Positions 862-56,326 are shown, numbered from the stretch's first letter. The stretch: DNA of 64,000 bases from a virus (IMGVR_UViG_3300045988_176028), one strand, 5' to 3'. Notes: generated by a model from the sequence alone, not told the origin. Translations and numbers: made by a program.

Positions 862-863
862 GC

Positions 864-23028: not shown

Positions 23029-23109
23029 ACCCCTTACCATGAAGGTAACAACCTCAAACAAATCCGGTTGCAAACTCGAAGCATCCATCCCAAAAAAAGG
23101 GGAAACAAC

Positions 23110-29159: not shown

Positions 29160-29190
29160 TCTTGTTAAGCCCTCCGAATCGGTAGGAGAA

Positions 29191-30894: not shown

Positions 30895-30926
30895 TATCTT
30901 TTTTTCTTTCGTTTCGTCTGTTTAAA

Positions 30927-31217
30927 TTATTGAACCTGAACGTCGTACAGTTTTTCCAGTATTTCTTCGGTGGATTCTTCCCCACGGTATTCAGTCCGGT
31001 CTGACGTGTAGATGCCGTCCATAATCTCGTAAAGGGAGACTATGGTTTCGTCGGTCAGATTGGAGAGACGGCCTTCGATGTACGCTTTTTTCATGGCGGC
31101 TCTCGTTTTTCCGTCGGACACCTTCTGCTGGTCGAGCCATTCGTCGGCGTCTTTTTTCGTCTTGCGGACAATCGCCATGCGTAAGGCGTTTGCGTATTGC
31201 TTCTGGTAGCTATTCAT
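30927..31217 (-). CDS. hypothetical protein (96 aa)
   Basis: AAGGAG RBS. First gene after the promoter at 31249. Confidence 0.55.
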   Translation of the reverse strand: MNSYQKQYANALRMAIVRKTKKDADEWLDQQKVSDGKTRAAMKKAYIEGRLSNLTDETIVSLYEIMDGIYTSDRTEYRGEESTEEILEKLYDVQVQ

Positions 31218-31248
31218 TTTTTTCTCCTTATGGTTTAAGACTTGTTTG

Positions 31249-31267
31249 TGTGAACAGTTCCAGTATA
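31249..31267 (-). promoter_or_regulatory. conserved promoter/leader motif copy
   Basis: Minus strand reads TATACT-GGAACT-GTTCACA. Confidence 0.65.
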
Positions 31268-31362
31268 GCTATTGTTTGGACAAAAAGCAAACCATGACGC
31301 AAACCAAAAAACGCCCGCCAATCCAACAAGGAAAAAGACGGACGTTTCAAAAACGCTCAGAC

Positions 31363-32058
31363 TCAACCCTCACGGAACATGCGAACCAGTTCAACCTCGG
31401 AAACTGGTCTCATATCCCAAGCGTCCAAGCCCACGTTGATTTCATTACGATTCTCAAACTCGCGTGGCATGTTCGCATGAGTGTGTCCGTGCAACAATCG
31501 CATGTTCTCCCCCACTTGCGGGATGGCATATGGGCGAAGCTCCGGCTTCGCCCAAGCTGCCACCCCATCCAAAGCGGGAAGGTCGAAGTCCTCACGCCAT
31601 TGGAAGTGGCAGAGGAACACGGGCATGACGGTTTCGCCATCCGTAATGTCAGTCATACCGATACGCCCGATTTCCCCGAACGCTTCGGTCAAATCCTTGA
31701 AGCCCTTGCTCTTACCGTACAGCACGTCATCATGGTTCCCGAGAATCAAATGCCGGTTATTACGAGGGCAACGCAGACCCTTAATATGCATAAGCGCCTG
31801 ATGAAGACTCCAAGCACCGCCACTGCACAAGTCCCCGAGAATGTAGAGTTCATCATTCGGCCCTACGATTTCGTTGATACGGTCAGTCACGTCCATATCA
31901 TGCCGATACCAGTTGACGCAGTCCTTGACCTGCATGTGGGCTTCGTTCGCCTGTTGCTTGATGGTATTGTCCGAAGTGAAACCGGGCTTCGCATATCCCC
32001 GTAATGCGGCCACAAACGGGTGGGCGAAGTGAGTGTCAGAAGTAAAGTATTTGGTCAT
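31363..32058 (-). CDS. calcineurin-like metallophosphoesterase
   Basis: SDTHFAH, ILGDLCSGG, LGNHD and HGHTH motifs. Confidence 0.75.
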   Translation of the reverse strand: MTKYFTSDTHFAHPFVAALRGYAKPGFTSDNTIKQQANEAHMQVKDCVNWYRHDMDVTDRINEIVGPNDELYILGDLCSGGAWSLHQALMHIKGLRCPRNNRHLILGNHDDVLYGKSKGFKDLTEAFGEIGRIGMTDITDGETVMPVFLCHFQWREDFDLPALDGVAAWAKPELRPYAIPQVGENMRLLHGHTHANMPREFENRNEINVGLDAWDMRPVSEVELVRMFREG

Positions 32059-40956: not shown

Positions 40957-42126
40957 CTACTCGATGATTCTCATTGCCTCATCCCGAATGTTTCGGGCGG
41001 CGTTCACGTCACGGTCATGCAACACTCCGCATGATGGGCACGCCCATTCGCGGATACTTAAATCCTTGACCAGAGGATTCTTGCAACCGCAGTCGTGGCA
41101 TAGTTGGCTGGATGGATACCATTTGTCCACATGAACCAACTGTTTGCCTTGACGGGCGAGCTTGTATTCCAACATGGTGCAGAACATGCCATACCCGTTG
41201 TCCGACGTGCTTTTAGCCAAACCTTTTCTGGCTTTGCGACCATTGGGGAGATAATGTCCCGGATGTTCGTAGTCTGGTTTCGGCTTGGGTTTCTTCATCA
41301 TGCTTTTCATGTTCAGAGTCTCCACGCCGACCATATCGTATGATGCGACAATCCTGTTGGCTTTCTTACGCTGGTAGTCGCGTCTCTGATTGGAGGTCTT
41401 CTCATACAGTCGGCCGACCCGCTTGCACTGTTTACGCCAGTTGGCGGAACCTTTGACCATATGGGAGAGCTTGCGTTGCTCTCTGGCGAGCTTGTCCTGC
41501 ATTTTCCGATAGTATCCCGGATATTCGGCGTGCTCCCCGTCACTGGAAACATACAGGCCGTGAGACGCGTAGTCCAATCCGACAGTCTTCACCGGCTTCA
41601 CTTTTTCGGGTATTTGGGTCTCGTACTCGAAAAGGATTGTCGCGGTGTATCTTCCGGAAGGGCAATGCTCCACGGTGACGGATTTCAGTTTCCAATCGTC
41701 GGGGATGTGCTTGTGTTGGCGTACCGCCAACCATCCGAGCTTGGGTAGTTTCAACCTCCTTGTCTTGTCATCCAATCTGATGTTGCCGTGGGACAGATTC
41801 GTCGTGTATGTCTTCCTGCCCCGACGTTTCGACTTGTATTTCGGAAAACCTGTTTTCCTGTCCTCGAAGAACCTCTTGTACGCCTTCTCCAATGCGAGTT
41901 GCGCGTTGCAAAGAGCGAAGCCATCCACCTCGCGCAGGAACGGATACGTGTCCTTGTACAAGGCTGGGGTGGGATAGCATGACTCCCAAGTGGTCTGATA
42001 GTGGGCGATGCGGGTTTCGAGCATGAGGTTGTATACGAACCTGACGCAACCGATGGTACGGTTTATCCGCCGTGCCTGTTCTTCGGTGGGGTAGGCGCGG
42101 AATCTGACCGCCGTATGGGCTTTCAT
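40957..42126 (-). CDS. tnpB: TnpB (IS605 OrfB family) RNA-guided nuclease
   Basis: 389 aa. RFRAYPTEEQARRINRTIGCVRFVYN N-terminus, VGLDYAS, VGVETLN, CHDCGC...CPSCGV, DRDVNAARNI. Confidence 0.9.
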   Translation of the reverse strand: MKAHTAVRFRAYPTEEQARRINRTIGCVRFVYNLMLETRIAHYQTTWESCYPTPALYKDTYPFLREVDGFALCNAQLALEKAYKRFFEDRKTGFPKYKSKRRGRKTYTTNLSHGNIRLDDKTRRLKLPKLGWLAVRQHKHIPDDWKLKSVTVEHCPSGRYTATILFEYETQIPEKVKPVKTVGLDYASHGLYVSSDGEHAEYPGYYRKMQDKLAREQRKLSHMVKGSANWRKQCKRVGRLYEKTSNQRRDYQRKKANRIVASYDMVGVETLNMKSMMKKPKPKPDYEHPGHYLPNGRKARKGLAKSTSDNGYGMFCTMLEYKLARQGKQLVHVDKWYPSSQLCHDCGCKNPLVKDLSIREWACPSCGVLHDRDVNAARNIRDEAMRIIE

Positions 42127-43432: not shown

Positions 43433-44032
43433 TCACAGATTCGCACTGTCGATGTTGTCGGCAAGGCAATCAGACAATCGGGCGTTTCCGCCTTGGGTCA
43501 GACGATAATGCTTGAGGAATCTGATTGCATCGTTGACTGTTACCAGTTGAGATGGCTTTGCGTAGTCCTTGTCCAGCGTGCGTTCCAATTCGCAGGTCTT
43601 GCATTCTCCTGCATCTCCAAGGCAGTCCTTGCAGAGTGTGCTACCACAGGTGTCGCACGTGTGCCTACAGGTTTTGTCGATGTATTTGCCGCAGTGTTCG
43701 CAACGTTTCCAGCAGTGGGCGCATTCCAAGGTGCCCTCGCAGTCTTCGCAGCTTGCGGCGTCATCGTCGCAGCAGTATGCGTCGCACTTGTCGCAGGAGT
43801 TCAGGCAATCTTTGCAGAACGTGTTGCCGCAGATGTTGCATCGTTCCGCGTATTTGTCGCAGACGATGTTGTCGCACTTGTAGCACAGGTGGCAGTGGTC
43901 GCAGCAGAAGACGCCTTCGCAGTTGGAGCACTGGTATAGGCAGTCTTCGCAATAGTTTTTGTGGCAGTGGTCGCAGGTGCCGTTGGCTATTGGATTGTTG
44001 AGGACGCAGTAGGAGCATTCGCAGTTGCTCAT
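43433..44032 (-). CDS. extremely cysteine-rich (CxxC-array) protein, 199 aa
   Basis: AAGGAG RBS precedes ATG 44032. More than 40 Cys in the first 150 aa form repeated C-x2-C/C-x2-H pairs. The C-terminal ~45 aa are Cys-poor. Confidence 0.6.
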   Translation of the reverse strand: MSNCECSYCVLNNPIANGTCDHCHKNYCEDCLYQCSNCEGVFCCDHCHLCYKCDNIVCDKYAERCNICGNTFCKDCLNSCDKCDAYCCDDDAASCEDCEGTLECAHCWKRCEHCGKYIDKTCRHTCDTCGSTLCKDCLGDAGECKTCELERTLDKDYAKPSQLVTVNDAIRFLKHYRLTQGGNARLSDCLADNIDSANL

Positions 44033-44071
44033 TTTTTCTCCTTGTTGGGTGTGGATTTCGACCCTTGTTTG

Positions 44072-44093
44072 TGTGGACGATTCCAGCATACCA
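44072..44093 (-). promoter_or_regulatory. conserved promoter/leader motif copy (TATGCT -10)
   Basis: Minus strand reads TGGTATGCT-GGAATC-GTCCACA. Confidence 0.6.
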
Positions 44094-44138
44094 CATAAAT
44101 AAGAGAATTAAGACAGCATGCCAAACAAGTCCCATCAA

Positions 44139-44162
44139 TGATATATATTGGACATGTCCACA
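44139..44162 (+). promoter_or_regulatory. conserved promoter/leader motif copy upstream of tracrRNA/cas9
   Basis: TGATATATATT-GGACAT-GTCCACA. Confidence 0.55.
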
Positions 44163-44228
44163 AATAAAAAACCAAGCGCTGTTCGAAAAACGGAAACGAC
44201 ACGCCGGGGTTGCCAGAAGAACACTGTG

Positions 44229-44237
44229 TGTTATAGT
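44229..44237 (+). promoter_or_regulatory. extended -10 promoter of predicted tracrRNA
   Basis: TGTTATAGT followed by GGG, as in the motif promoters. The downstream box is replaced by the anti-repeat. Confidence 0.55.
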
Positions 44238-44243
44238 GGGAAC

Positions 44244-44331
44244 CACGGCATATAGTTTAAACAAGTCCGGTGACAGACCGGAATTGACCGTAGAGCGGCG
44301 ATAGGACGCAAGTCCCAATCGCCGCTTTTTT
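44244..44331 (+). ncRNA. tracrRNA: predicted tracrRNA
   Basis: Anti-repeat CACGGCATATAGTTTAAAC (44244..44262) pairs over 17 bp, with one bulge, to GTTTGAATATATGTCGT of the minus-strand repeat. AAG and hairpin TCCGG-TGACAGA-CCGGA follow. Terminator GCGGCGAT-N15-ATCGCCGC plus T6 ends at 44331. The 5' end is inferred. Confidence 0.6.
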
Positions 44332-44360
44332 AATGCAGTGCGGAAAGAGAACAACAGACC

Positions 44361-47300
44361 TTGACCGCAAAAACCAATATCCGCTATCGCGTGGGAGCTG
44401 ACGTAGGACTCAACAGTCTAGGATTCTCGGCAATCCAACTCGACGCCAACGGCAACCCAATCACACTACTCAAAACCCTCAGCTACATTCACGACGGCGG
44501 AGTAGACCCAACCCAAAACAAGTCCGGCACCACCCGCAAGGCCATGGCCGGAATCGCCCGACGTACCCGCAACATGCGCAAACGCCGCCGCCACCGTCTC
44601 AACCAACTCGACCGTCAGCTCTACCAACTGGGATATCCGGTGGACGAAGTGCCGGAAAGCGAACACGGACTCTACGAATACTGGAACGTCCGTTCCGCAT
44701 TGGCGACCGCCTACGTCCCCGACAAGGACAAGCGTGACCGGATGATGGTCATGGCTATCCGACATATCGCACGCCATCGCGGTTGGCGCAACTCCTATAG
44801 TCGGGTCGAAACCCTGTTCGAGGACGTGGAGCCGTCCGACCAGTACAAGGATTTGAAACAGCGAGTGGAGACCCGTCTTGGAATGAAACTAGACGAGGAT
44901 ATGACCCCGGCGCAACTCGTCGCATTGACGCTTTCAGACCGTGATGAGAACTTCATGAGGGTTCGTACCAGCACAAAATACGGTGAGGGTGTTCTGCCAA
45001 GCCGTCTCATGCAGTCCGACAATGCGCGTGAACTCCGACGCATCTTCACCGTCCAGCAAGTGCCCGAGGACGTTTGGAAGCCCATCCTGCGTACCGTGTT
45101 CCACTGCGCATCCCCCAAGGGTTCCGCAGAGAAGCATGTCGGAACAGACCCGCTCGACCAGACCCAGAAGAGAGCGTTGAAGGCCAGCATCGCCTTCCAG
45201 AAGTACCGTATCCTCAACGTCATCACCAACCTGCGTATCCGACGCAAAGGCGAAGCATCCCGACCGTTGACCGTCAACGAGAAACAGGATGTATACGAAC
45301 TGCTCACCACCGCCAAGGAAGACTTGGAATGGTTGGACGTGTGCGCCGTGCTTGACATCGAACGCAACGAACTCAAAGGCGTCGGCACCCTCACCCATGA
45401 CGGGGAGGAAAGAATCGGTAACAAGCCACCCGTCTTGGACACTGTCATCCGACTCCACGGCATCAAAAACACCAAGCTCCGCAAGATGATGGACGCATGG
45501 TGGAACACGGCCACCGAGACCGAACAGGCCGCGATGATTCGACTCCTGTCCAACACGGTTGACTTGGACAAGGTGCGCGACCTCATCGAATACGCCTCCC
45601 CCATCGAATTCATCGACGGGTTGGACGAAGACCTGCTCACCCCGTTGGACTCCATCAGTCTTCCAGTCGGACGTGCCGCCTACTCCGAAAAAACCCTCAC
45701 CCGACTGTCCAAACGCATGTTGGAAACGGAAGATGATTTGCATTATGCGATTCGCCACGAGTTCAACGTGCCCGCAGACTGGAAGCTTCCGGTTCCACCT
45801 GTTCAGGAGCCGACCGGCAATCCTGCCGTTGACCGAGTGTTGAAAGCGTTCAACCGTTTCCTCAGCCAGTGCGAACAACAGTATGGCATTCCGGAAAGCA
45901 TCGCCATCGAAACCACGAAGGAATCGTTCTCGTCCATCGCGTTCGGACGCACGCTCGACTATGAGCGCCGTCAACGTCGGGACAAGGACAATCAGACGCG
46001 TGCCGCAATCCGTGAGGATATGAGGAAGCAACTGTCCAACGGCGGAAGCTTCAAAGTCCACGACTACGACATTCGCCGTTGGGAAATCGTCCAATCGCAG
46101 AACAACACATGCCTGTACTGTGGTGCGACCAGTCCACGATTCAGTTTCGATAAGTCGGAACTCGACCATATCGTTCCCCGTCGTGGTGTCGGTTCGGACA
46201 GCAAACGCACCAACATGGCCGCAGTATGCCCCGAATGCAATGCCAACAAGTCGAACATTCCGTTCGCCGTCTGGGTGCATTCCGACTATGCGAAAGCGCA
46301 CGGCATCACCATGAATGATGTCATCGCACGAGTGAACCAGCTGATGTTCCCACCATCCATGAACCGCAAGCAGGTCAGTCAGGTGAAAAAGGCCATCATC
46401 AGCCGACTCAAGCAGACCGAACAGGACGAGCCGTTGGACAATCGTTCCATCGAATCCGTGGGCTGGATGGCCGACGAACTCCACCGCCGACTCGATGGAC
46501 GATACGCCAACAAAACGGTGAAAGTGTCCACGTTCCCCGGCTCCATCACCTATGAGGCGCGACGCGCTTCCGGCATCGACGGGCAAATCCACTTCATCGG
46601 CGCACAGTGGAAGACCCGACTCGACCGCCGACACCATGCGGTTGACGCTTCGGTCATCGCCATGATGAACCAGAGTGTCGCTCTCCGTCTTGCCGAACGC
46701 CACTATCTACGCGAATCCCAACGCCTGTGCGGGACCCCGTTCGGACAGGCGGACTGGAAGCAGTATCCGAATGAGAACACTCCCGGCTACGACCAATACC
46801 AGCAATGGAGCGGACAGATGAAGAATCTGCTCCACCTGTTGAACAAGGGTTTGGACGAGGACACCATTCCGGTCGTTCGGAGCCGCCGCCTCCGCTTGGG
46901 CAACAGCACGGCGCATGATGCGACGGTGAAACCGTTGCAATACGTGCGACTGGGAGACGCCATGCCGACCAGTCTCATCGACCATGCGCTCACCCCGCAA
47001 GTGTGGAAGGCATTGACCGGATTGTCGGATTATGACCCTCAGAATGGTCTGCCCGCTAATCCGAAACGTGTCATCACAGCCTTGGGTGAAGTATGCCATG
47101 CGAAGGATGAAATCGGTTTCCTTCCGGGCAACAATGCCCAATTGTTCGTCAACGGTGGAGCCGCCGATATTGGCGGAACCATCCATCATGCCCGTATCTA
47201 CCGTTGCGAACAGGTGTTGAAGAACGGGAAACGCAAGACGTTCTATGGCATGGTGCGCGTGTTCCAATGCGATTTGATGAAACGCAGGAAGAACACCGAC

Positions 47301-47687
47301 CTGTTCCGAACCCCGTTACATCCCGCCGACGTGTCCATCCGGTATGCGGACGGCAAGGTCAGGGACGCCATCCGACAGGGACACGCAACCTGCATCGCAC
47401 GACTCACCGTCAACGATGAAATCAAGTTGACACCTGAGATGATGAGGGACATGTGTCCTGAATATGCGAACATGTTCCACACAGATTCCGGCGTCGAACG
47501 ACGATTCATCGTGGCCGGCTTCCCCTCCCCTATCCAGTTCAGACTAGTTCCCTCCGTCATTGCAGAAGAAGGATTAAGTAAGATGGTTGAACAAGGTTTG
47601 GAGGTTCCCCCCAAGGTCGAGAAGATGTTCAAACTGCACACCTTCGTTCCAGTGGTCAATAAGATTGGACATGTTTTAGAGCAGTAA
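44361..47687 (+). CDS. cas9: Cas9, compact type II-C-like (1108 aa)
   Basis: RuvC-I VGADVGLNSLGF, Arg-rich bridge RRTRNMRKRRRHRL, HNH ELDHIVPRRG...CPECNANKSN, RuvC-III RRHHAVDASVIAM. TTG start. Confidence 0.92.
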   Translation: MTAKTNIRYRVGADVGLNSLGFSAIQLDANGNPITLLKTLSYIHDGGVDPTQNKSGTTRKAMAGIARRTRNMRKRRRHRLNQLDRQLYQLGYPVDEVPESEHGLYEYWNVRSALATAYVPDKDKRDRMMVMAIRHIARHRGWRNSYSRVETLFEDVEPSDQYKDLKQRVETRLGMKLDEDMTPAQLVALTLSDRDENFMRVRTSTKYGEGVLPSRLMQSDNARELRRIFTVQQVPEDVWKPILRTVFHCASPKGSAEKHVGTDPLDQTQKRALKASIAFQKYRILNVITNLRIRRKGEASRPLTVNEKQDVYELLTTAKEDLEWLDVCAVLDIERNELKGVGTLTHDGEERIGNKPPVLDTVIRLHGIKNTKLRKMMDAWWNTATETEQAAMIRLLSNTVDLDKVRDLIEYASPIEFIDGLDEDLLTPLDSISLPVGRAAYSEKTLTRLSKRMLETEDDLHYAIRHEFNVPADWKLPVPPVQEPTGNPAVDRVLKAFNRFLSQCEQQYGIPESIAIETTKESFSSIAFGRTLDYERRQRRDKDNQTRAAIREDMRKQLSNGGSFKVHDYDIRRWEIVQSQNNTCLYCGATSPRFSFDKSELDHIVPRRGVGSDSKRTNMAAVCPECNANKSNIPFAVWVHSDYAKAHGITMNDVIARVNQLMFPPSMNRKQVSQVKKAIISRLKQTEQDEPLDNRSIESVGWMADELHRRLDGRYANKTVKVSTFPGSITYEARRASGIDGQIHFIGAQWKTRLDRRHHAVDASVIAMMNQSVALRLAERHYLRESQRLCGTPFGQADWKQYPNENTPGYDQYQQWSGQMKNLLHLLNKGLDEDTIPVVRSRRLRLGNSTAHDATVKPLQYVRLGDAMPTSLIDHALTPQVWKALTGLSDYDPQNGLPANPKRVITALGEVCHAKDEIGFLPGNNAQLFVNGGAADIGGTIHHARIYRCEQVLKNGKRKTFYGMVRVFQCDLMKRRKNTDLFRTPLHPADVSIRYADGKVRDAIRQGHATCIARLTVNDEIKLTPEMMRDMCPEYANMFHTDSGVERRFIVAGFPSPIQFRLVPSVIAEEGLSKMVEQGLEVPPKVEKMFKLHTFVPVVNKIGHVLEQ

Positions 47688-47708
47688 CCACCGCTTCTAA
47701 TCGTTTCT

Positions 47709-47766
47709 AAAAAGGAAAGGGTCTACCAAAAACCATCTAAGGTTATCAGTAGACCCTTTCCTTTTT
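47709..47766 (+). terminator. 18-bp perfect inverted repeat (bidirectional terminator/attenuator) between cas9 and cas1
   Basis: AAAAAGGAAAGGGTCTAC-N22-GTAGACCCTTTCCTTTTT, immediately followed by AGGAGG and the cas1 ATG. Confidence 0.7.
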
Positions 47767-47777
47767 AGGAGGTTGAT

Positions 47778-48668
47778 ATGGCAAAAGGGTGGCGAGTCAT
47801 CGACTGCACCGCAATGACCGGCAGACTGACCTACAAGCGCGGACAACTCGTCGTGGAACACCACGATACGGAGACGCGGATACCGTTGGCCGATACGGCG
47901 GTGCTGCTGCTCGGTATACAAACAACCGTCTCCACAGCACTATTGCAGCAATTGGCGGTCTTCGACGTGGAAGTGCTCATCTGCCAATGGAATCAGACAC
48001 CAATCGCGGCAATGCAATCATGGAACAAACCCAACACCCGTTCCGCCGCCCGTCAGAACGCACAACAGGAAATGAGCCTACCGGCAAGAAAAGCCGCATG
48101 GCAGAAAATCATACGAGCGAAAATACTAGGACAATCCCACGTACTCGACAAACTCAACTTGGACGGAGGGGAACTCTTAAGAAGTCTAGCCGTCCAAGTC
48201 CACTCCGGCGACCCGAACAACATCGAAGGACAGGCGGCACGCGAATACTGGCATCACATGTTCTCTGAAGAACAATTCCGCCGATTCCCCGGATATGGCG
48301 AAGGGCACAACGCTCAACTCGATTACGCGTACACGGTACTGCGTGGATTCCTGATTAAGTCCATCTGCACAGCGGGACTCTCCCCCACCATCGGCATACA
48401 TCACCATTCAGCCAGCAACTATTTCTGTCTGGCAGACGATTTGATAGAACCGTTCCGACCGGCCATCGACTACCAGATAAGCCAACTACCGGACGGACCG
48501 TTGGACTCGGAAATGAAACAGCAGATAGTGCTGTCCGTCAACAGCCAATTCAACCCAAAAGAACTAACCATCCCATCACTGGTGGACGAATTTTGTGGAC
48601 AATACGCGCAATACTGCGAAGGCTGGCTGGACAAACTACCCGTCCCCGTCTTCGGAAAAAGGCGCTAA
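47778..48668 (+). CDS. cas1: Cas1 integrase (type II)
   Basis: 296 aa in the position after cas9. The N-terminal beta-domain and C-terminal helical domain pattern is typical of Cas1. AGGAGG RBS. Confidence 0.88.
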   Translation: MAKGWRVIDCTAMTGRLTYKRGQLVVEHHDTETRIPLADTAVLLLGIQTTVSTALLQQLAVFDVEVLICQWNQTPIAAMQSWNKPNTRSAARQNAQQEMSLPARKAAWQKIIRAKILGQSHVLDKLNLDGGELLRSLAVQVHSGDPNNIEGQAAREYWHHMFSEEQFRRFPGYGEGHNAQLDYAYTVLRGFLIKSICTAGLSPTIGIHHHSASNYFCLADDLIEPFRPAIDYQISQLPDGPLDSEMKQQIVLSVNSQFNPKELTIPSLVDEFCGQYAQYCEGWLDKLPVPVFGKRR

Positions 48669-48670
48669 AA

Positions 48671-49012
48671 ATGAAGAGAGATAAGGATAACGGCATGTGG
48701 ACGCTGGTCATGTACGACCTACCCATTACAACGAGAGAGGATGCGGGAGCCGCGAACAGATTCAACCATCTACTCTCTGATTTAGGTTTCGTTCGAGTGC
48801 AATATTCCGTCTATGCAAGATATACCCCCACCCAATCAGGCGGTCGTTCTGCGTTAAAGTATATTCAAGCCGGACTACCTCCCCACGGCAACGTGCGAGT
48901 ACTCTGCGTAACGGACAATCAATGGTCTGATTCACTGAAGTACATCGATAAAAAACAGCAGACCACAGACGAACAGCCGGGGTTACTGACGCTTTTTGAC
49001 GACGAAGAATAG
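48671..49012 (+). CDS. cas2: Cas2
   Basis: ATG 48671 lies 3 nt after the cas1 stop. MWTLVMYDLPITT...VQYSVYAR is the ferredoxin-like Cas2 core. Confidence 0.85.
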   Translation: MKRDKDNGMWTLVMYDLPITTREDAGAANRFNHLLSDLGFVRVQYSVYARYTPTQSGGRSALKYIQAGLPPHGNVRVLCVTDNQWSDSLKYIDKKQQTTDEQPGLLTLFDDEE

Positions 49013-49051
49013 TTTAAAAACGTTGATATGAAGCCTTTTGCCCAAACTCGT

Positions 49052-49716
49052 AGTTTGAGCAAAAGGTAATACGACATATATTCAAACCTGTTCGCCATAT
49101 GCTATCGTAAGAGTGAGTTTGAGCAAAAGGTAATACGACATATATTCAAACTGATGTCGCACGCGGATTAACGCTCTGGAGTTTGAGCAAAAGGTAATAC
49201 GACATATATTCAAACCACAAGCACACTGAATGTACGTCGTTGAAGTTTGAGCAAAAGGTAATACGACATATATTCAAACTTCAAAAATGGCTATTTTCCA
49301 ACGTTTTAGTTTGAGCAAAAGGTAATACGACATATATTCAAACTGTCCAGTGATTTCCCTCTCCTCACCGGAGTTTGAGCAAAAGGTAATACGACATATA
49401 TTCAAACTAAAAATGAAAGGATTGAAGAAAACATAAGTTTGATTAAAAGGCAATACAACATATATTCAAACCAAAACGGGAACAGGCATTGAACGGTGGG
49501 AGTTTGGGCAAAAGGTAATACGACATACATTCAAACTGCGAGTTTCCCTTCAGTGTGATTAAAAGGCAATACGACATATATTCAAACTGAAGCATTCAGT
49601 GCTTACGCGTCCGAAAAGTTTGAGCAAAAGGCAATACGACATATATTCAAATCAGGCTGCATATTTTCGTCAAAATCGACAAGTATAAATAAGGAAAATA
49701 CGACATATATTCAAAC
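49052..49716. CRISPR. CRISPR array: 10 full 36-bp repeats plus 1 degenerate terminal repeat, 10 spacers
   Basis: The + strand repeat is AGTTTGAGCAAAAGGTAATACGACATATATTCAAAC, starting at 49052, 49116, 49180, 49244, 49308, 49372, 49436, 49501, 49552, 49617 and ~49680. Spacers are 28-29 bp except one of 15 bp (49537..49551). Repeats 1-6 are identical and 7-11 are progressively mutated. The anti-repeat suggests minus-strand crRNA. Confidence 0.95.
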
Positions 49717-49797
49717 AAAAATTCAAACAAAATACCTAACAAAGAATAAGCCGGTGTTTCGCCACTCCCACCGGCGAGGAGCTGTTCACACAAAGAC

Positions 49798-49847
49798 GCG
49801 GAGTAGGAGAAGGGTGGAGAGAAAAACACCCGTAGACTCCGCTTTTT
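49798..49847 (+). terminator. rho-independent terminator separating the array from the tRNA block
   Basis: GCGGAGT...(inner GGGTG/CACCC)...ACTCCGC followed by TTTTTGTTT. Confidence 0.6.
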
Positions 49848-50053
49848 GTTTGGCGTTTGACATGGCTTGGTTGTTTCCCATCAGTGAGTTCATGTCGTGA
49901 ACACTGGCATGTATGCGTGAGTCAAGAGGGTGCAAGGCATACGGCTTGCTGACAGTCCTTCATGGATTTCAGGATTGTCGTCCATCGCGCATGTGAGAGT
50001 CATGCCATGGATTGTCCCACGAGCTTTAGGGGTATAAAAAGTGTGGGACTTTG

Positions 50054-50125
50054 TGCGGGAGACGAGATTCGAACTCGCGATACTTGCTTGGAGGGCAAGG
50101 GTGATGACCTTTTCACTACTCCCGC
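50054..50125 (-). tRNA. tRNA-Gly(UCC)-like, atypical C33
   Basis: Hand-folded cloverleaf, 72 nt. Acceptor GCGGGAG/CTCCCGC, T-loop TTCGAAT, anticodon loop CCTCCAA. No encoded CCA. Confidence 0.7.
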
Positions 50126-50244
50126 AATAGGAGGGGATGGATTGTGTTTGCGGGCTGGAAAGCACTACATGCAGAGAAAAAATGTTTACGACCATTCCAA
50201 ACTATTATGGGATGGAAGACTCGCAATCAGAAACCCATTCCCAG

Positions 50245-50332
50245 CGGAGTCGGAGGGATTCGAACCCTCGAACCGTATGAAACGGTTAACACCTTAGCAG
50301 GGTGCCCCTATCGGCCACTCAGGCACGACTCC
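50245..50332 (-). tRNA. tRNA-Ser(GCU)
   Basis: 88 nt with a long variable arm AACCG-TTTCATA-CGGTT. Anticodon loop CTGCTAA, T-arm GAGGG-TTCGAAT-CCCTC. Confidence 0.8.
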
Positions 50333-50371
50333 GAAGTTTCGACACGCCAAAAACAGCCGGTCGAAACTTAG

Positions 50372-50442
50372 CTCCCCATGATGGACTCGAACCACCTCTA
50401 AAGGTTCCAAAGACCCGTGTGCTGCCATTACACTAATGGGGA
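50372..50442 (-). tRNA. tRNA-Gln(UUG)
   Basis: 71 nt. U1-A72 and G73, anticodon loop CTTTGGA, T-loop TTCGAGT. One mismatch at the 27-43 pair. Confidence 0.65.
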
Positions 50443-50474
50443 ATGTGCAGACCGTTTTGACGGCCCGCGAATAA

Positions 50475-51320
50475 TTATTTGGATTTTGAAATCAGCTTGT
50501 CAATGTCCGCGCCCAACTGCCTTAACTGGGCGAAAGAGTTGGCGACGTTGTTTTGCGCCGTTTCCTCTCTCTGCTGAGCGGCTTCCATCAGCTTCTTGCT
50601 GTTCGCATCCAATTCGGCGGCATGCTGTTCAGCCTTCTTGGTTCGGAGGTCGATTTCCTGTGACGCCTTGTCCAAACGGTTGACTGCGTCAGCTTCCGCC
50701 TTGCTGATAATCTGTTCGGCTTGTTTCTTGGCCGCGTCCAACTGGATGGCAACCTTATCGTCGGTTTCCTTTTTCAGTTTGGCGCATTCCTGTTCAAGCT
50801 TCTGCTTCTTATCCTGTGCGGCGGTCATCATCTGTCTGGTGGTTTCCGTCGCGGAGTCGAGCCGCTTCTGGGATTCATCCTTGGCCTGTTGGAGAATCTG
50901 TTCGGCTTGCGTGCGGGCCTGTTCCAGCTCCTCACGTTTCTTCGACTCGTAAGTGTTTTTCAACGTTTGGAATTCTTTGCCGAGGCTGGTGCCTAATTCC
51001 TGCATCGGGTTTTCCGACGCTTGACGGGCGTCCTGCAAGTCGGCGTTCAACCGTTCAATCTGCTGGCGGAGGGATTCAGCTTCCTGCTCCCGTTTGCCGA
51101 GTTCGGATTGACGCTTGTCCAAGACCATGTTTTTTTCCGTTAACTGGCGTTGCAGATTCCAAATCTGTGTTTCCAACCCGTTCACGTACTGTTCAACGGA
51201 ATCCTTGCGATAACCGTTGAATCCGGTGGGGAGGTTGAGTGGTTGTACCTGTGGCTGGGTCATTCCTTCCACGGTGAGAGCGTGGGAGGAGATGACCCGT
51301 GTTTCATCAGACATGGTCAT
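50475..51320 (-). CDS. DivIVA-domain coiled-coil protein (281 aa)
   Basis: GAAGGA RBS precedes ATG 51320 (the track ORF extends spuriously over tRNAs). FNGYRKDSVEQYVNGLETQIWNL resembles the DivIVA N-terminal motif. The rest is K/E/Q-rich coiled coil. Confidence 0.65.
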   Translation of the reverse strand: MTMSDETRVISSHALTVEGMTQPQVQPLNLPTGFNGYRKDSVEQYVNGLETQIWNLQRQLTEKNMVLDKRQSELGKREQEAESLRQQIERLNADLQDARQASENPMQELGTSLGKEFQTLKNTYESKKREELEQARTQAEQILQQAKDESQKRLDSATETTRQMMTAAQDKKQKLEQECAKLKKETDDKVAIQLDAAKKQAEQIISKAEADAVNRLDKASQEIDLRTKKAEQHAAELDANSKKLMEAAQQREETAQNNVANSFAQLRQLGADIDKLISKSK

Positions 51321-51355
51321 TTTGAGTTCCTTCTTTTCTGGTTGAAAAACACGAG

Positions 51356-51428
51356 AGCCTAGAGCGGGGGTCGAACCCGCGACCTTCTGTTCCGGAGACA
51401 GACGCTCTATCCACTGAGCTATCAAGGC
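51356..51428 (-). tRNA. tRNA-Arg(CCG)
   Basis: 73 nt. D-arm GCTC-AGTGGATA-GAGC, anticodon loop CTCCGGA, T-arm GCGGG-TTCGACC-CCCGC. One U-U mismatch in the acceptor stem. Confidence 0.75.
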
Positions 51429-51485
51429 GATGGGGCGAAACCTATGGGGAATCGCCACTGTAAAGGAAGAACCATTCATGGTTCG

Positions 51486-51568
51486 TGCTTCGGGAGGGAA
51501 TCGAACCCTCACGTCAATATGACAAAGCTTTTTGAGAGCTTCGCGTTTACCTGTTTCGCCACCGAAGC
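51486..51568 (-). tRNA. tRNA-Leu(CAA)
   Basis: 83 nt with a long variable arm. Anticodon loop CTCAAAA, T-arm GAGGG-TTCGATT-CCCTC. Confidence 0.8.
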
Positions 51569-51686
51569 GGGATGAGCCTCCGCAGAGGCTCAGCAGACCG
51601 TTCCCGCGACTGGGCGGGTCGGCTGAAAACTGGAACCGCCATGAGACGGCTCCGAAGCCTTCTCGAACAACCTGTAAGAGAAGTAG

Positions 51687-51757
51687 TATGTCACGCTGGA
51701 ATCGAACCAACATCTACGGTTTTGGAGACCGTGGCTCTACCGTTGAGCTAGTGACAT
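51687..51757 (-). tRNA. tRNA-Trp(CCA)
   Basis: 71 nt. A1-U72, anticodon loop CTCCAAA, T-loop TTCGATT. Confidence 0.75.
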
Positions 51758-52022
51758 ATGGGGTGGGCTACCAACGTAGACGCCACCCTCTCGTTGTCCT
51801 GTAGTTAGCGTCCAAGTCCAACTCGATAGACGCGGCATGGCGGGTTGGATTTTACCGCCAACGGCAAGGTCGTGGGCTGCTAAGTACCCCGTTTCACCGT
51901 TCTTCCCCTTCGGTCATCAACCACCTGATTAAGGCAGGGAAACTCTTATCCTCCACAAGACCATGTAGGATTATTCGAGCAATGCCATCAGTTTCACGGA
52001 CAGCTACCTCCATGAAACCTAG

Positions 52023-52096
52023 CACCCAAGGTTGGAGTCGAACCAACGACGTCCGGTTTAGGAAACCGGCGCTCTATTCCGCTGAGCTACAAGGGT
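52023..52096 (-). tRNA. tRNA-Arg(CCU)-like with two U-U mismatches in the acceptor stem
   Basis: 74 nt. TAGCTCAGCGGAATAGAGC D-arm, anticodon loop TTCCTAA, T-arm GTTGG-TTCGACT-CCAAC. Acceptor ACCCTTG/CTTGGGT. Confidence 0.6.
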
Positions 52097-52316
52097 GTAT
52101 GTCTCCGTTCCGCGAGGACACCCGCAACGCGTCTTCCGGATTGGAGTCATTCACATCAGCCGTTCGCTACTTACCATTGTTGCGGGGCAATGGCTTTCTC
52201 TAATGGGATGATGGTGTTTTACGCGCATTCCACGCGGACGCTTTTAATTGCCCATCCAATACGACGAGCCACAGGATTACACTCCCGATTTCCCGCAGTT
52301 ACGCCAACTGCGGTCG

Positions 52317-52389
52317 TGCCCCCCGTGGGATTCGAACCCACAACCCACGACTTAAAAGGACGCTGCTCTAACCATTGAGCTAGAGGGGC
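52317..52389 (-). tRNA. tRNA-Lys(UUU)
   Basis: 73 nt. Anticodon loop CTTTTAA, T-arm GTGGG-TTCGAAT-CCCAC, acceptor GCCCCTC/GGGGGGC. Confidence 0.75.
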
Positions 52390-52459
52390 GGAACAGGAGG
52401 TGAAGGAACGAAAACCCACCTCCCGCTTGGATTAGTTAAAGGAGAACCATCAAGGTTCG

Positions 52460-52543
52460 TGCTCCGAGAGAGATTTGAACTCTCACACCTTTTCAGGTAA
52501 AGCATTTTGGGTGCTTCGCGTCTACCGATTTCGCCATCAGAGC
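52460..52543 (-). tRNA. tRNA-Leu(CAA)-like, atypical C33
   Basis: 84 nt with a long variable arm. Anticodon loop CCCAAAA, T-loop TTCAAAT. It has the same 3' flank, CGAACC, as the other Leu tRNA. Confidence 0.65.
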
Positions 52544-52808
52544 GTCGCGCGATTGAGGGACGTGCGTTTTCGTTCTTACAGAACGACCCATTGATTTTCG
52601 TACCACCCTCCCCGCTTACAAATCAACAAAAGTCAGAGATTGGAGGAAACTGATTTTTTGTTTACAAAGTTTTTCCTTCAAGTTTGGAGAGTCTGTTTTG
52701 CAGGAGTCGCTTAGCACGCACATCAGTTTCCTCTATTTAGAGTTTGGATAAAAGCCCGTAAGGCAATTATCCAAACATTGTTTTGAATACGGTATGCATT
52801 CAAAATCG

Positions 52809-53177
52809 TGGAGCCGGAGGGAATCGAACCCTCGTCCTTGAAAACGTTGATGATGTTTTCTACATGTTTAGCCATCTCATTTATATATGTTGAAAGTTCC
52901 AGTCGAAGAGGCACCCCGGAACAGTTTTGCAACTCAGTCATGAAACGATGAACAGTTGCCGTTCACCGAGTTTTTGCTGTCCTTTCTTTTTCAGAATCGC
53001 CTTACAGCAAATCAGTGACCCTGTTCTTCCTTCACCGTGTTTCAGGCGGCGAGCTGGAAGTTACGCGAAGAATTCGTCTTGGCGTTTATTGTTTGACATG
53101 GATTGATGACGGTTGTCCACGTCAGCCTCCGACATGCTTGCATTATCTTGATTTTCAAGTCGAAACCTGTCGGCCCC
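52809..53177 (-). ncRNA. ssrA: tmRNA (SsrA), tag AKTNSSRNFQLAA
   Basis: 5' end GGGGCCGACAGGTTTCGAC. 3' end GAGGG-TTCGATT-CCCTC-CGGCTCC-A. The acceptor stem has a G3-U70 pair. Internal frame GCC AAG ACG AAT TCT TCG CGT AAC TTC CAG CTC GCC GCC TGA lies at 53083..53042. Confidence 0.85.
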
Positions 53178-53773: not shown

Positions 53774-54046
53774 ATGCAGTCCAAGCAAATACGAGAAGCA
53801 ACCACAGTCGCATATATAGAAGACCAGCTCAAGTCGGAAGACCCCACTCTCATACAGTCGGCCACGGGGAATCTAGCCAGACTGTATGGAATGACCACGC
53901 TCTCCCAACTGACCGGTTTGGCGAGGCCATCCCTCTACCGAAGCCTATGCGGTCAAGGAAACCCATCCTTCCAAACCATGTGCAGGGTATTGGACGCCAT
54001 GGGGTACACAGTCACGGTGAAGCGTAAGGAGACGGAACATGAGTGA
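53774..54046 (+). CDS. HigA-family HTH 'addiction module antidote' protein (TIGR02684-like), no adjacent toxin
   Basis: ARLYGMTTLSQLTGLARPSLYRSLCGQGNPSFQTMCRVLDAMGYTV closely follows the family signature (...GLSRESLYKALSGEGNPSFDT...). It overlaps the repA start by 8 nt. Confidence 0.7.
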   Translation: MQSKQIREATTVAYIEDQLKSEDPTLIQSATGNLARLYGMTTLSQLTGLARPSLYRSLCGQGNPSFQTMCRVLDAMGYTVTVKRKETEHE

Positions 54047-55094
54047 CAGGCAAGTGGAACAGAACGCTCTAGACATTGACATACCCGGCATGGAGTTGGA
54101 TGTTCGACGGGTCAACCTGTTGGACGATATAGAAGCCCGCGAGCCGAACAGTATGGAAATATGGTATGGGCATTCCATTCTCACCGCCACACTGTTTCCA
54201 CCAGCCCAACCGTCCGATGATGTGGATTTCGTCAGCAAGTCGAACGGACGGTTGGAATACATGCTTGAAGCTGGCGTGACGGGTGATGGGGATGATAGGA
54301 AACGCCGGTTCCCGTTCGGCAAATATCCGAGACTGTTGATGGCTTGGATGGCTAAGCAGATTCGTGCGGCGAAAGGCCATAAGACGAGGAATGTTGACCC
54401 GGAGACGAAGACCATCACCATTCCAAGCATCTACCAGTTGTGTGAGGAAATGGGATTGCCGCATGGCGGGCGTACCGCGAAGAGCGTGCAGGAACAGTTG
54501 GAACTGTTGTTGGCTTGCCGTATCAGTATTCGCGCGTCCGGCACGGGCAAGGGGTTGAATGTGAGGGATACGGCCTATCTGCCTATCGTTCAGGCCGTGC
54601 GCATTATCAATGATGAGAAGAATGTGGGCTATTCCGGTGCCACGTTCCGTCTGACCGATGAAGTGTATGAACGGTTGAGTCGTGAGTCGGCTCCGTTCGA
54701 TACGAGAGTGTCCACTTACCTTTTGAAAGGCAGGTCGGTCATGCCTTACGACATTTACATTTGGCTGACTGGCAGTATGAAGAATCTTCGCCGTGACCTT
54801 CCGGTGAGTTGGGATTGGCTGTATGAACGGTTCGGAGACCAGATTGCGGTCAAGAAGTCTTTTCGGCGCATGTTCCGTCAATCGTTGGAGAAGGTCAAGA
54901 AGGTGTATCCGGGGTTGAATGTTGAGTGTCCAACGTATGAGGATTACATTATTCTGCATCCGAGTCCCACGTCGGTTCCTACCCGTGCTGTCCGTGAGGT
55001 TGAGGTGGGTGCTAATGGGGATGTGTTCGAGGTGGCTTTGCATTCGTTGCAATCGGTTCAACGGAAAGGTGTACGAAAGGCCACGTCAGATTGA
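54039..55094 (+). CDS. repA: plasmid replication initiator, RepA_C (PF04796)-like, second copy
   Basis: 351 aa. FPFGKYPRLLMAWMAKQI hallmark and later PYDIYIWLTGSM. Iterons lie immediately downstream. Confidence 0.7.
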   Translation: MSDRQVEQNALDIDIPGMELDVRRVNLLDDIEAREPNSMEIWYGHSILTATLFPPAQPSDDVDFVSKSNGRLEYMLEAGVTGDGDDRKRRFPFGKYPRLLMAWMAKQIRAAKGHKTRNVDPETKTITIPSIYQLCEEMGLPHGGRTAKSVQEQLELLLACRISIRASGTGKGLNVRDTAYLPIVQAVRIINDEKNVGYSGATFRLTDEVYERLSRESAPFDTRVSTYLLKGRSVMPYDIYIWLTGSMKNLRRDLPVSWDWLYERFGDQIAVKKSFRRMFRQSLEKVKKVYPGLNVECPTYEDYIILHPSPTSVPTRAVREVEVGANGDVFEVALHSLQSVQRKGVRKATSD

Positions 55095-55101
55095 GTTGAC
55101 C

Positions 55102-55519
55102 GTGGCCTTTCGGACACCTTGGAGAGTATTGGTGTCTGAAAGGCCATGTGTGGGCGGGTGTCTGCGTGGCTTTTCGGACACCTTTCGCATGGCTTTTCAA
55201 ACACCTCCCAACGGGTTGAACGGTTTCTCGACGTGGCCTTTCACGCACCCTCGTATACGCTACGGATTGCACGCGCCTTTCCAGCTTTAATTTATCCACT
55301 AGTTTTTCGTTGGAATTTCAACCATTCCACACGCTTATCCACATTTCCACAGGCAGAACGTCAAACATTCCGTGGACTAACAGGCACCTTTAGTGGCGTT
55401 TCAAACACCATGACGATTATGAATCATGCCGGACATGGACTATCAAACACCATCAGCATGGACTATCGAACACCCTTTTATGGGGTTTCCGACACCTTTC
55501 CGTGGACTAACAGGCACCT
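55102..55519. repeat. iteron field of candidate oriV-2
   Basis: At least 9 copies of rTGG(c/a)yTTTCrrACACC, for example at 55102, 55131 (inverted), 55165, 55188, 55232, 55393, 55434, 55457 and 55481. CGTGGACTAACAGGCACCT occurs twice (55371 and 55501). Confidence 0.7.
55292..55343. promoter_or_regulatory. two DnaA-box-like sites in the AT-rich core between iteron clusters
   Basis: TTATCCACT at 55292..55300 and consensus TTATCCACA at 55335..55343. Confidence 0.55.
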
Positions 55520-55606
55520 CGCATGGTAGAAAAACCGTTACGGGAGTAAGGCTCAACCGGCATGGTTATATATTATATGCTCATAGTTTCTTATAGTTTC
55601 TTATCA

Positions 55607-55723
55607 GGGGACCCTCGAACCGCCGAAGCGACACTTCGGTAGGCGGGGAACAAGTCCCTTCAGGAAACCCTTGCCGCGAGACAAGGGAATCCCCCGGCTT
55701 CGGCCGTGGGGAGGAAGTCAAAG
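55607..55723 (+). ncRNA. orphan omega-RNA-like element (no adjacent tnpB)
   Basis: GGGGACCC...CCGCCGAAG-CGACA-CTTCGGTAGGCGG...GTCCC stems are followed by GGAATCCCCCGGC-TTCG-GCCGTGGGGAGGAAGTCAAAG, nearly identical to 8846..8883. Confidence 0.45.
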
Positions 55724-55771
55724 TTCCGGTTTTCCGAGCCAAGGAATCAACCGGTGCGAAATACTGGAAAC

Positions 55772-56281
55772 ATGAGACTCCTATACAAAATCACAAGCTT
55801 ATATCGCAAAGCCCGTTGGCTCATGTGGCTGGCTGGAATGTTGCCCACCACGCTCATTCCCCTGCTGGGTTACGGAATGCACGCTTTGAACATCGCAAAG
55901 GATAGGCAGGAGTTGGCGACAGATAATCCGGAGCTTGCTTCGGAGGAGACGACTGGCTCCCTATTTGATTGGATGACCGGCGAGACGGTGGGAAGAATCA
56001 TTGGAATCATTACGATTCTTGGCATTATTTTCATCCTACTGTTGATTATATTGCAAATCTTCTCGTTCATTGGTGCCCGAACGTCAGTATCCGGAACAGA
56101 CCATGACACGGCCACCAAGGAGGCCAACCGTAGGCAAGCAGACTTGGGCGAAATGGACGTGGAGCCGAATGATGGGGACGTGGCCTTTCAAACACCTTCC
56201 CAATCGAAGCCAAAAAGGAAAGGCAAGCCGAAACCGGCTCCCGCCACTGAGGGCAACGAGGATGACTGGTTCATCGACTAG
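55772..56281 (+). CDS. membrane protein with K/P-rich C-terminus (169 aa)
   Basis: ATG 55772 within ORF 55706..56281. Three TM helices. Confidence 0.5.
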   Translation: MRLLYKITSLYRKARWLMWLAGMLPTTLIPLLGYGMHALNIAKDRQELATDNPELASEETTGSLFDWMTGETVGRIIGIITILGIIFILLLIILQIFSFIGARTSVSGTDHDTATKEANRRQADLGEMDVEPNDGDVAFQTPSQSKPKRKGKPKPAPATEGNEDDWFID

Positions 56282-56326
56282 TCTGAATGGTGTTTAAAAA
56301 GCCACGCGCCGACCGGCTCGTGCGGA

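Follow-up and report, generated by a model that had tools for sequence, protein, structure and literature searches.

A complete type II-C CRISPR-Cas9 module on a predicted Bifidobacterium megaplasmid of the pMP7017 type

The 64,000-nt stretch of IMGVR_UViG_3300045988_176028 analyzed here (the window) contains a complete CRISPR-Cas9 module of type II-C, which spans the trans-activating CRISPR RNA (tracrRNA), cas9, cas1, cas2, and the repeat array (Table 1). It is quite probable that this is a functional, actively adapting system, carried as cargo by a low-copy, iteron-replicating Bifidobacterium megaplasmid of about 220 kb, of the same kind as pMP7017. Since the spacers whose targets could be identified aim at bifidobacterial mobile elements, the system most likely keeps rival or harmful mobile DNA out of the host cell of the plasmid. 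The main identified target is a small integrative element with a PstI-type restriction-modification system, and sister megaplasmids are targeted too. In total, 84 kb of the element were inspected, consisting of the window with its 70 open reading frames (ORFs) and 20 kb of flanking DNA.

An initial annotation of the window had proposed a complete type II-C-like module, and every part that it named was located. Its limits were slightly wide, with about 70 nt to spare both ahead of the tracrRNA promoter (start at 44139) and past the structured end of the module (end at 49847). The Cas9 protein of 1108 amino acids (aa) had been described as having intact RuvC I/III, HNH, and bridge-helix motifs. 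This agrees with the catalytic residues, all of which are intact (D14, E517, D602/H603, N627, and H759/D761), and with the Pfam domains of the product (Cas9_a, RuvC_III, Cas9_b_hairpin, Cas9_Topo, HNH, and Cas9_C); the arginine-rich bridge helix is found at residues 67-79. cas1 and cas2 were each assigned to the expected Pfam family and the proposed 11 repeats were counted. A longer reading of cas2 (139 aa, from 48593) would overlap cas1. As the annotation had stated, csn2 and cas4 are absent: no family match to either was found among the neighboring genes or the window ORFs (Pfam and PHROGs). The module thus has the type II-C layout, with cas9, cas1, and cas2 in that order and without csn2 or cas4, a Cas9 containing RuvC-like and HNH domains, and a tracrRNA with an anti-repeat. 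The proposal that the nuclease is small enough to be of practical interest was overstated, as 1108 aa is ordinary for type II-C; the usual sizes include 1082 aa (Nme) and 1101 aa (Ana).

The closest relatives of the window Cas9 outside its own plasmid family are distant. Matches in the PDB were 4OGC (AnaCas9, E = 6e-210) and 8D2K (AceCas9), both over the full length, and 6JOO (CdCas9, in two stretches). The nearest named cellular Cas9 proteins are from Bifidobacterium at 48-49% identity, so that no near-identical characterized ortholog was found. The clade of the window Cas9, with identities of 81-99%, was found on this plasmid family only; PLSDB plasmids and GenBank phages did not contain it, and a Cas9 peptide scan of GTDB representative genomes returned no relative.

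The initial annotation predicted a tracrRNA without exact coordinates, and it was located directly upstream of cas9. Its sigma-70-like promoter matches the consensus at 10 of 12 positions, has an extended -10 element, and is conserved in an alignment of the sister loci. The position of this promoter would place the 5' end of the transcript at about 44244. The anti-repeat (ACGGCATATAGTTTAAAC, 44245-44262) is followed by a nexus-like hairpin (CCGGT/ACCGG) and a terminator hairpin (GCGGCGAT..ATCGCCGC), after which a T6 run ends at 44331. The stretch was found to fold far better than shuffled sequence (z = -5.46). Further comparison of the sister elements revealed four repeat variants, R1 to R4, and the anti-repeats shift in step with them, the rest of the tracrRNA being nearly invariant. 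When paired by RNAduplex, the anti-repeats of three variants bind the minus-strand repeat at -19.6, -19.9, and -24.1 kcal/mol, versus merely -8.3 to -10.7 kcal/mol for the plus-strand repeat. RNAalifold was run on chimeras of the minus-strand CRISPR RNA (crRNA) and the tracrRNA from six distinct repeat/anti-repeat variants. In the lower stem 7/7 base pairs are unbroken across the six, with two pairs changed on both sides and two on one side, and the 6 bp of the upper stem are likewise kept. This covariation indicates that the predicted tracrRNA is genuine. Because it fits the minus strand, we infer that the array is transcribed into crRNAs from the strand opposite cas9. A single guide RNA for this Cas9 would take the form GTTTGAATATATGTCGT...-tetraloop-ACGGCATATAGTTTAAAC....

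The placement of the crRNA promoters is less direct. All sister arrays have, immediately beyond their last repeat, a conserved hairpin that precedes a U-rich run on the minus strand (Table 1). It is likely a terminator that shields the array from the tRNA genes lying upstream on the same strand. In several sister arrays it abuts the last repeat and leaves no space for an external promoter; the crRNA promoters may therefore lie inside the repeats. A similar arrangement is known from Neisseria type II-C systems, in which the repeats themselves contain the promoters and the leader lies downstream with respect to transcription (PMC12477760). Two observations speak against this assignment of strand and promoters. 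No conserved minus-strand -10 element or convincing minus-strand promoter was found in the repeats, and a plus-strand sigma-70-like motif (TTGAGC-16-TATATT, 9/12) occurs within 8 of the 11 window repeats (49055-49647). The latter shows no conservation in the other repeat variants and is, for this reason, probably fortuitous; it may give rise to antisense transcription of the array. A plus-strand crRNA model had been prompted by this motif and by right flanks resembling the NNRHHHY of CdCas9. It was dropped, as anti-repeat pairing was poor, the covariation fits the minus strand, and the NNRHHHY fit failed with the eight protospacers described below.

The array has 36-nt repeats (plus strand, AGTTTGAGCAAAAGGTAATACGACATATATTCAAAC) with a period of 64 nt. 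The six cas2-proximal repeats are identical and the five distal ones carry 2-10 mismatches; one of the distal spacers is shortened to 15 nt. In the leader, positions 49034-49048 are an inverted copy of the first 15 nt of repeat 1 (49052-49066). Such an inverted copy just upstream of repeat 1 was also found in the sister loci L007, L013, and L018-L027, and it co-varies with the repeat in each of the four variants, so a leader-repeat hairpin is conserved by covariation. This hairpin could be an integration signal or supply the most recent crRNA with its 3' end.

Fourteen arrays from sister contigs were compared, with 7-30 repeats each and 155 unique spacers. Arrays of the same repeat type share their cas2-distal spacers and differ at the cas2-proximal end (L020 and L027, the window and L026, L007 and L024). 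From these shared old ends and differing cas2-proximal ends, it follows that acquisition is polarized and ongoing in nature; spacer acquisition is evidently active at the cas2-proximal end, as judged from the array sequences. At L007:14987-15532 and in the old end of the L024 array a 192-nt periodicity was found, in which three repeat-spacer units were duplicated and then diverged. Repeated acquisition of three similar "CCCCA..." spacers had been considered for these two arrays, and the old duplication of three units is the better fit.

It is doubtful that the four repeat/anti-repeat variants are mutually incompatible guide-RNA dialects among sister megaplasmids which share Bifidobacterium cells and fight each other with Cas9, the co-varying leader-repeat hairpin being part of the same specificity at spacer integration. 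If this were so, the crRNAs or decoy repeats of a rival could not be processed by the resident tracrRNA. Cas9 itself stays 81-99% identical across at least four repeat/anti-repeat variants.

Targets were identified for 8 of the 155 spacers, and all are non-viral or unclassified mobile elements, sister megaplasmids included. Six of these spacers match one integrative element, one a DarB-like gene, and one a sister-plasmid gene. Window spacer 2 (49152-49179) matches at 28/28 positions in 11 human-gut metagenome contigs. Five further spacers, from four other arrays, match within the same 3.5 kb: L024_10 and L027_4 (both 28/28), L025_8 (26-27/28), L026_24 (25/28), and L024_18 (25/28). The targeted element, of about 7.3 kb, encodes a tyrosine integrase, a BsuBI/PstI-type restriction enzyme and methyltransferase, a Rep_OBD protein, an FtsK/AAA_22-like protein, and an HTH regulator, and sits in Bifidobacterium chromosomes with housekeeping genes on both sides. 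Its integrase has the identical sequence in a multispecies Bifidobacterium record, with B. longum subsp. infantis ATCC 15697 and an entry named B. adolescentis among the carriers. A host look-up with the flanking ORFs of the human-gut variant of this element returned no exact record for five of six proteins.

The eighth identified spacer, shared by the sister arrays L020 and L027, matches the window itself, within a gene (23068-23745) that has no Pfam or PHROG match. The same spacer also targets six other loci on ENA contigs (L003-L005, L014, L015) and five IMG/VR contigs. As this window gene is targeted by a sister spacer, the window plasmid is a potential victim of the Cas9 of a relative. 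No further protospacers of this kind were found when the 20 kb flanking the window were searched with the spacers. The readable part of the repertoire, which amounts to 5% of the spacers, thus points to mobile elements, siblings among them, in line with the preference for plasmid targets that plasmid arrays show in general (66% vs 27%; PMC9071438) and with the precedent of CampyICE1 (PMC8743540).

The wider searches were carried out against plasmid and phage collections, as the initial annotation had called for, and also against metagenomes. All 155 spacers gave no match in PLSDB and a single one among GenBank phages: L025_1 matches at 27/28 positions within a gene for a 2158-aa DarB-like methylase-helicase on an unverified virome contig, and the same sequence is present in a Bifidobacterium metagenome-assembled genome (MAG). 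The window array gave only chance matches in PLSDB and INPHARED, and window spacer 1 had no match in JGI metagenomes. Exact scans of IMG/VR covered five spacers (four full-length and one as a degenerate core pattern); for window spacers 1-3 and two recurrent spacer cores they returned nothing or only the arrays themselves. The proposal that the system serves competition between elements has direct, if thin, support: all eight matched spacers aim at mobile elements.

For the protospacer adjacent motif (PAM), the minus-strand model requires reading the reverse complement of the left flank, which was done for the eight protospacers. All eight matches are perfect over 11-15 PAM-proximal bases, ignoring the extra first base of the 29-nt L020_3 spacer. 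Mismatches lie mostly at the PAM-distal end, which fits the minus-strand model weakly. The PAM of CdCas9 is NNRHHHY, and a purine at position 3 is possibly common to that motif and to the window system.

Three points about the targets count against an interfering system directed mostly at mobile elements. The first is that 147 of the 155 spacers have no identified target, with a handful having been scanned against large collections. The only PAM regularity, a purine at position 3 in 8/8 cases, is not significant after multiple-testing correction. Finally, the plasmid that bears the anti-sister spacer has an allele of its own which differs from the target by two mismatches, and under the minus-strand model both are PAM-distal and would protect only weakly from self-cleavage.

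Further analysis addressed the carrier. The parent contig (ENA ERZ27229434, k115_155710) is 221,124 bp long and includes the window at about 68.6-132.6 kb. The exact window Cas9 protein is present on four public contigs, and four other window proteins were found on many independent contigs of 203-231 kb, which have the same genes at differing offsets and orientations. In five look-ups, one of which spanned 2833 blocks of the collection, the backbone genes were never found on contigs above 1 Mb. Such permuted offsets, together with the upper size limit, would be expected of a circular replicon of about 220 kb and not of a chromosomal island. The initial annotation had already placed the module on an apparently extrachromosomal replicon, and its description of the context (RepA/iteron origins, tnpB insertion sequences, and a tRNA/transfer-messenger RNA (tmRNA) island) was borne out: two RepA_C genes with repeats or iterons, three tnpB genes, and nine tRNA genes with a tmRNA gene were found. 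Its remark that the 64 kb are free of housekeeping genes holds insofar as thyA, the secE/secG-like genes, and the RNA-repair genes are plasmid cargo; pMP7017 likewise carries secE/secG and an RNA ligase, and thyA was not seen in the stretch of pMP7017 that was read.

The replication genes connect the element to pMP7017. The initiator encoded at 54039-55094 is 53-56% identical to the rep gene product beside the tmRNA in pMP7017 (B. breve, 56%) and in B. longum megaplasmids. Immediately downstream of its gene are 20-mer iterons, with at least nine direct and three inverted copies (55068-55520 and 56179-56307). The product of the pMP7017 gene beside the tmRNA is RepB, an experimentally proven initiator which acts on a 20-mer iteron array and keeps the plasmid at about one copy for each chromosome (PMC8313286). 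Far from this initiator, another RepA_C gene (4060-4965) has 21-bp promoter repeats and parallels repA of pMP7017. The gene order of RNA ligase block, tRNA array, tmRNA, rep, and secE/secG is common to both plasmids (PMC10832533), and the RepB-type initiator adjoins the tRNA array and tmRNA, as is characteristic of the pMP7017-type backbone. The tRNA island includes two tRNA-Leu(CAA) genes, and the tmRNA encodes the tag AKTNSSRNFQLAA, compared with ANTVSSSRFTLAA in pMP7017. On these sequence grounds, an extrachromosomal carrier of the pMP7017 type is strongly supported. One observation that does not fit is a RepA variant on a 615-kb contig. The 10-kb flanks encode CHAP and NlpC/P60 hydrolases, a single-stranded DNA-binding protein (SSB), a sortase, giant LPXTG-type surface proteins, and a YafQ toxin, a set which suggests the accessories of a Gram-positive conjugative plasmid. 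The 84 kb showed neither FtsK-type transfer genes nor type I CRISPR genes; the type of CRISPR system is cargo and not a backbone character.

The host is predicted to be Bifidobacterium, and more precisely B. adolescentis according to protein names in RefSeq/GenBank. Two B. adolescentis proteins are identical to products of the window, namely WP_254883520.1 (the RepA) and WP_217730464.1 (a 323-aa backbone protein). A B. adolescentis Cas9, WP_217730526.1, clusters at 90% identity with the sister protein P0007; P0007 and the window Cas9 share 91% identity. A Bifidobacterium host also agrees with the relatives of Cas9 and with the similarity of a tnpB gene (96%) and of the RNA-ligase block (84%) to B. 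longum megaplasmids.

Table 1. Positions of the CRISPR-Cas9 module and associated features in the window.
Feature	Position	Strand	Description
Whole type II-C module	44210-49775		tracrRNA with own promoter and terminator, cas9, cas1, cas2, 11-repeat array
tracrRNA promoter, sigma-70-like	44210-44237	+	TTGCCA, 16 nt, TG-TATAGT
tracrRNA	~44244-44331	+	~88 nt; anti-repeat, nexus-like hairpin, terminator hairpin
cas9	44361-47687	+	TTG start, 1108 aa, AnaCas9/CdCas9-like II-C clade
Hairpin with U-run between cas9 and cas1	47698-47775	+	28-nt arms, -39.8 kcal/mol
cas1	47778-48668	+	296 aa, PF01867, E = 1.5e-24
cas2	48695-49012	+	105 aa as in gene calls of public assemblies, PF09827
Leader, acquisition end	49013-49051	+	Invariant AACGTTGATATGAAG and inverted copy of the start of repeat 1
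CRISPR array	49052-49716	- (inferred crRNA strand)	11 repeats, 10 spacers
Conserved hairpin	49750-49775	-	GCCGGTG..CACCGGC, followed by a U-rich run on the minus strand; sequence conservation
tRNA/tmRNA island	50053-53177	-	Nine tRNA genes and tmRNA; hallmark of the replicon family
Replication module	54039-56307	+	RepB-type initiator 54039-55094 (RepA_C), then iterons
Protospacer in a plasmid gene	23347-23374	+	28/28 match to a spacer of sister arrays L020 and L027

Several neighboring features were also recorded. The hairpin with a U-run between cas9 and cas1 is kept in position in L007 (13328-13393) and L013 (13328-13388), where the sequences differ and the folding energies are -26.4 and -31.5 kcal/mol. 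It is probably an attenuator or terminator, which would uncouple the expression of cas9 from that of cas1-cas2. Just upstream of the tracrRNA promoter, a 34-nt stretch (44095-44128) is 71% identical to 49685-49718, which consists of the degenerate last repeat and its flank. Similar 34-nt sequences thus bracket the module, either as a relic of its insertion or by chance, and they are not conserved in L013. The gene that adjoins the tracrRNA on its upstream side (43433-44089, minus strand) encodes a cysteine-rich protein of 199-218 aa in which CxxC pairs are numerous. Neither Pfam nor PHROG has a family for it; L007 has a protein of comparable size there, and L013 a different one.

Elsewhere in the window, three genes for TnpB (OrfB_IS605/Cas12f-like) are present at 2081-3499 (-), 7363-8820 (+), and 40957-42126 (-). 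The third lies 2.1 kb upstream of the tracrRNA. At the DNA level it shares 96% identity with a copy from a B. longum plasmid, and L007 and L013 lack it at this position. The region 27997-32058 encodes thymidylate synthase, a fused AAA_33 kinase/T4-type RNA ligase (567 aa), a metallophosphoesterase, and a DUF3846 protein. These genes resemble a module for RNA (tRNA) repair, located about 20 kb from the tRNA/tmRNA island; at the DNA level, the RNA-ligase/phosphoesterase block shares 84% identity with a B. longum megaplasmid. Within that island, a long ORF (50475-51713) overlaps tRNA genes, and the real gene there is that of a 281-aa coiled-coil protein (50475-51320). The window ORFs also gave Pfam matches to GmrSD_C, for restriction that depends on DNA modification, and to Lar, for the alleviation of restriction. 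Judging from the called genes of sister contigs, these probably belong to 771-1802 (+) and 11197-11700 (+), and they suggest further defense and counter-defense cargo.

Comparison with known systems places the module among the type II-C systems of Actinomycetota, which likewise have the order cas9-cas1-cas2 and no csn2 or cas4. The Cas9 domain set and gene order resemble those of AnaCas9 (4OGC), CdCas9 (6JOO), AceCas9 (8D2K), and the chromosomal type II-C systems of Bifidobacterium. In B. longum and B. pseudolongum, the tracrRNA was described upstream of cas9 with a lower stem, bulge, upper stem, nexus, and terminal hairpins (PMC7284854), and the window tracrRNA matches this description in both placement and architecture. 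Unlike the chromosomal Bifidobacterium systems, the window system is plasmid-borne and exists in four co-varying repeat/anti-repeat variants among close relatives. The layout is similar to that of Neisseria meningitidis, which also has 36-nt repeats and an array antisense to the cas operon that is read toward the leader, with spacers entering beside cas2 (PMC12477760). However, the Cas9 proteins are only distantly related (E ~1e-17), the window spacers are 28 nt long, and a clear counterpart of the extended -10 box at the end of Nme repeats is not evident in the window repeats.

The pMP7017 family of B. breve and B. longum shares the RepB-type initiator, the 20-mer iterons, and the second RepA_C gene with promoter repeats (PMC8313286), as well as RNA ligase, metallophosphoesterase, Lar, and TnpB insertion sequences (PMC10832533, PMC5758520). 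Its members are smaller (169-198 kb vs 203-231 kb here) and show little nucleotide similarity beyond patches. They carry two type I-E systems, whereas the window plasmid has a type II-C Cas9 and the host name B. adolescentis. pMP7017 was shown by experiment to be conjugative and to have one copy, with tRNAs, tmRNA, and RNA ligase aboard (PMC10832533). Another parallel is provided by CampyICE1, a Campylobacter integrative conjugative element (ICE) with a type II-C Cas9 and spacers aimed at competing mobile elements. CampyICE1 and plasmid-borne CRISPR systems in general resemble the window system in that a mobile element carries a CRISPR system aimed at rival mobile elements (PMC8743540, PMC9071438). 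In contrast to the complete and evidently active adaptation module of the window, CampyICE1 has Cas9 alone without cas1 and cas2. Its targets are unrelated plasmids, whereas those of the window family include sister plasmids and the integrative restriction-modification element.

From these comparisons, a working model can be put together. The tracrRNA would be expressed from its own promoter upstream of cas9, as suggested by sequence and covariation. The crRNAs would be transcribed off the opposite strand toward the cas2-adjacent leader in a Neisseria-type layout, the strand being assigned by covariation and the promoter sites being putative. About the first 17 nt of the minus-strand repeat would then pair with the anti-repeat to form the 7-bp lower stem, a bulge, and the upper stem. 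Guided by this duplex, Cas9 with its intact RuvC and HNH domains would cut matching PAM-adjacent DNA. Cas1-Cas2 would insert new 28-nt spacers at the cas2-proximal end, as array comparison indicates.

Other explanations were weighed against this model. The system might mainly provide antiviral defense for the host cell ("my host's enemy is my enemy"), with the plasmid as just the vehicle and the mobile-element matches as a minority by-product. Plasmid-borne antiviral CRISPR is an established idea (PMC10805597). The 95% of spacers that have no identified target leave room for it, and Bifidobacterium phages are poorly represented in collections, with five spacers scanned exactly against IMG/VR. 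Nevertheless, none of the eight identified targets is recognizable as a phage. The sole GenBank phage match is the unverified virome contig, whose sequence also occurs in a Bifidobacterium MAG, and the preference of plasmid arrays for plasmid targets points the same way. A mainly antiviral role is, on balance, unlikely. It would be more surprising still if the carrier were a jumbo phage or phage-plasmid wielding Cas9 as a viral weapon against competing elements. The family is listed as viral in IMG/VR (11 uncultivated viral genomes (UViGs), L017-L027, of up to 204.7 kb), which goes against a plasmid, and the size of about 220 kb, the tRNA/tmRNA island, the thymidylate synthase, the T4-type RNA ligase/kinase, and the lack of a Pfam family for most ORFs would all suit a phage. 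No capsid, portal, terminase, or tail family was found with PHROGs and Pfam in the 70 window ORFs and 20 kb of flanks, however, and a tape-measure match at E = 5e-4 is the lone hint. Moreover, the replicon matches that of the experimentally conjugative pMP7017 and is flanked by CHAP, NlpC/P60, SSB, and sortase genes. In this viral listing, a plasmid rich in tRNA genes and in ORFs of no known function was probably misclassified.

It is equally improbable that the window copy is a decaying remnant, inactive in interference or adaptation. The degenerate state of 5/11 repeats and the truncated spacer could be read in this way, as could the ~650-aa Cas9 fragments of some family members. Degenerate distal repeats are, however, normal at the old end of arrays. 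All genes and catalytic residues are intact, and the six leader-proximal repeats are perfect; their spacers are unique among the 14 arrays and one matches a circulating element at 28/28. The full-length 1108-aa Cas9 is also retained across the variants of 81-99% identity and in a cluster of 2006 sequences. A silent CRISPR system would have a precedent in the type I-E system of pMP7017, which is transcriptionally silent (PMC10832533). The functional, actively adapting plasmid-borne system remains the preferred explanation.

Parts of this picture were already known, as the proteins are in RefSeq and the use of a Cas9 borne by one mobile element against others is an established concept. B. adolescentis is a dominant bifidobacterium of the adult gut. 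In the searchable literature no description was found of B. adolescentis megaplasmids or of bifidobacterial megaplasmids bearing Cas9, but only of the pMP7017 type with type I-E systems in B. breve and B. longum. The backbone genes of the window plasmid are present in hundreds to thousands of public assemblies, and the analysis documents a widespread sister lineage of pMP7017. Among its details, the co-diversification of repeat and anti-repeat, the co-varying leader-repeat hairpin, the targeting of sister plasmids, and the repeated targeting of a restriction-modification element are noteworthy. Genome editing in Bifidobacterium, which is difficult to transform, could benefit from a native Cas9 for which the tracrRNA and the orientation of the crRNAs are defined. 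The readable spacers record conflicts of plasmid against sister plasmid, and of plasmid against an integrative element that bears restriction-modification genes.

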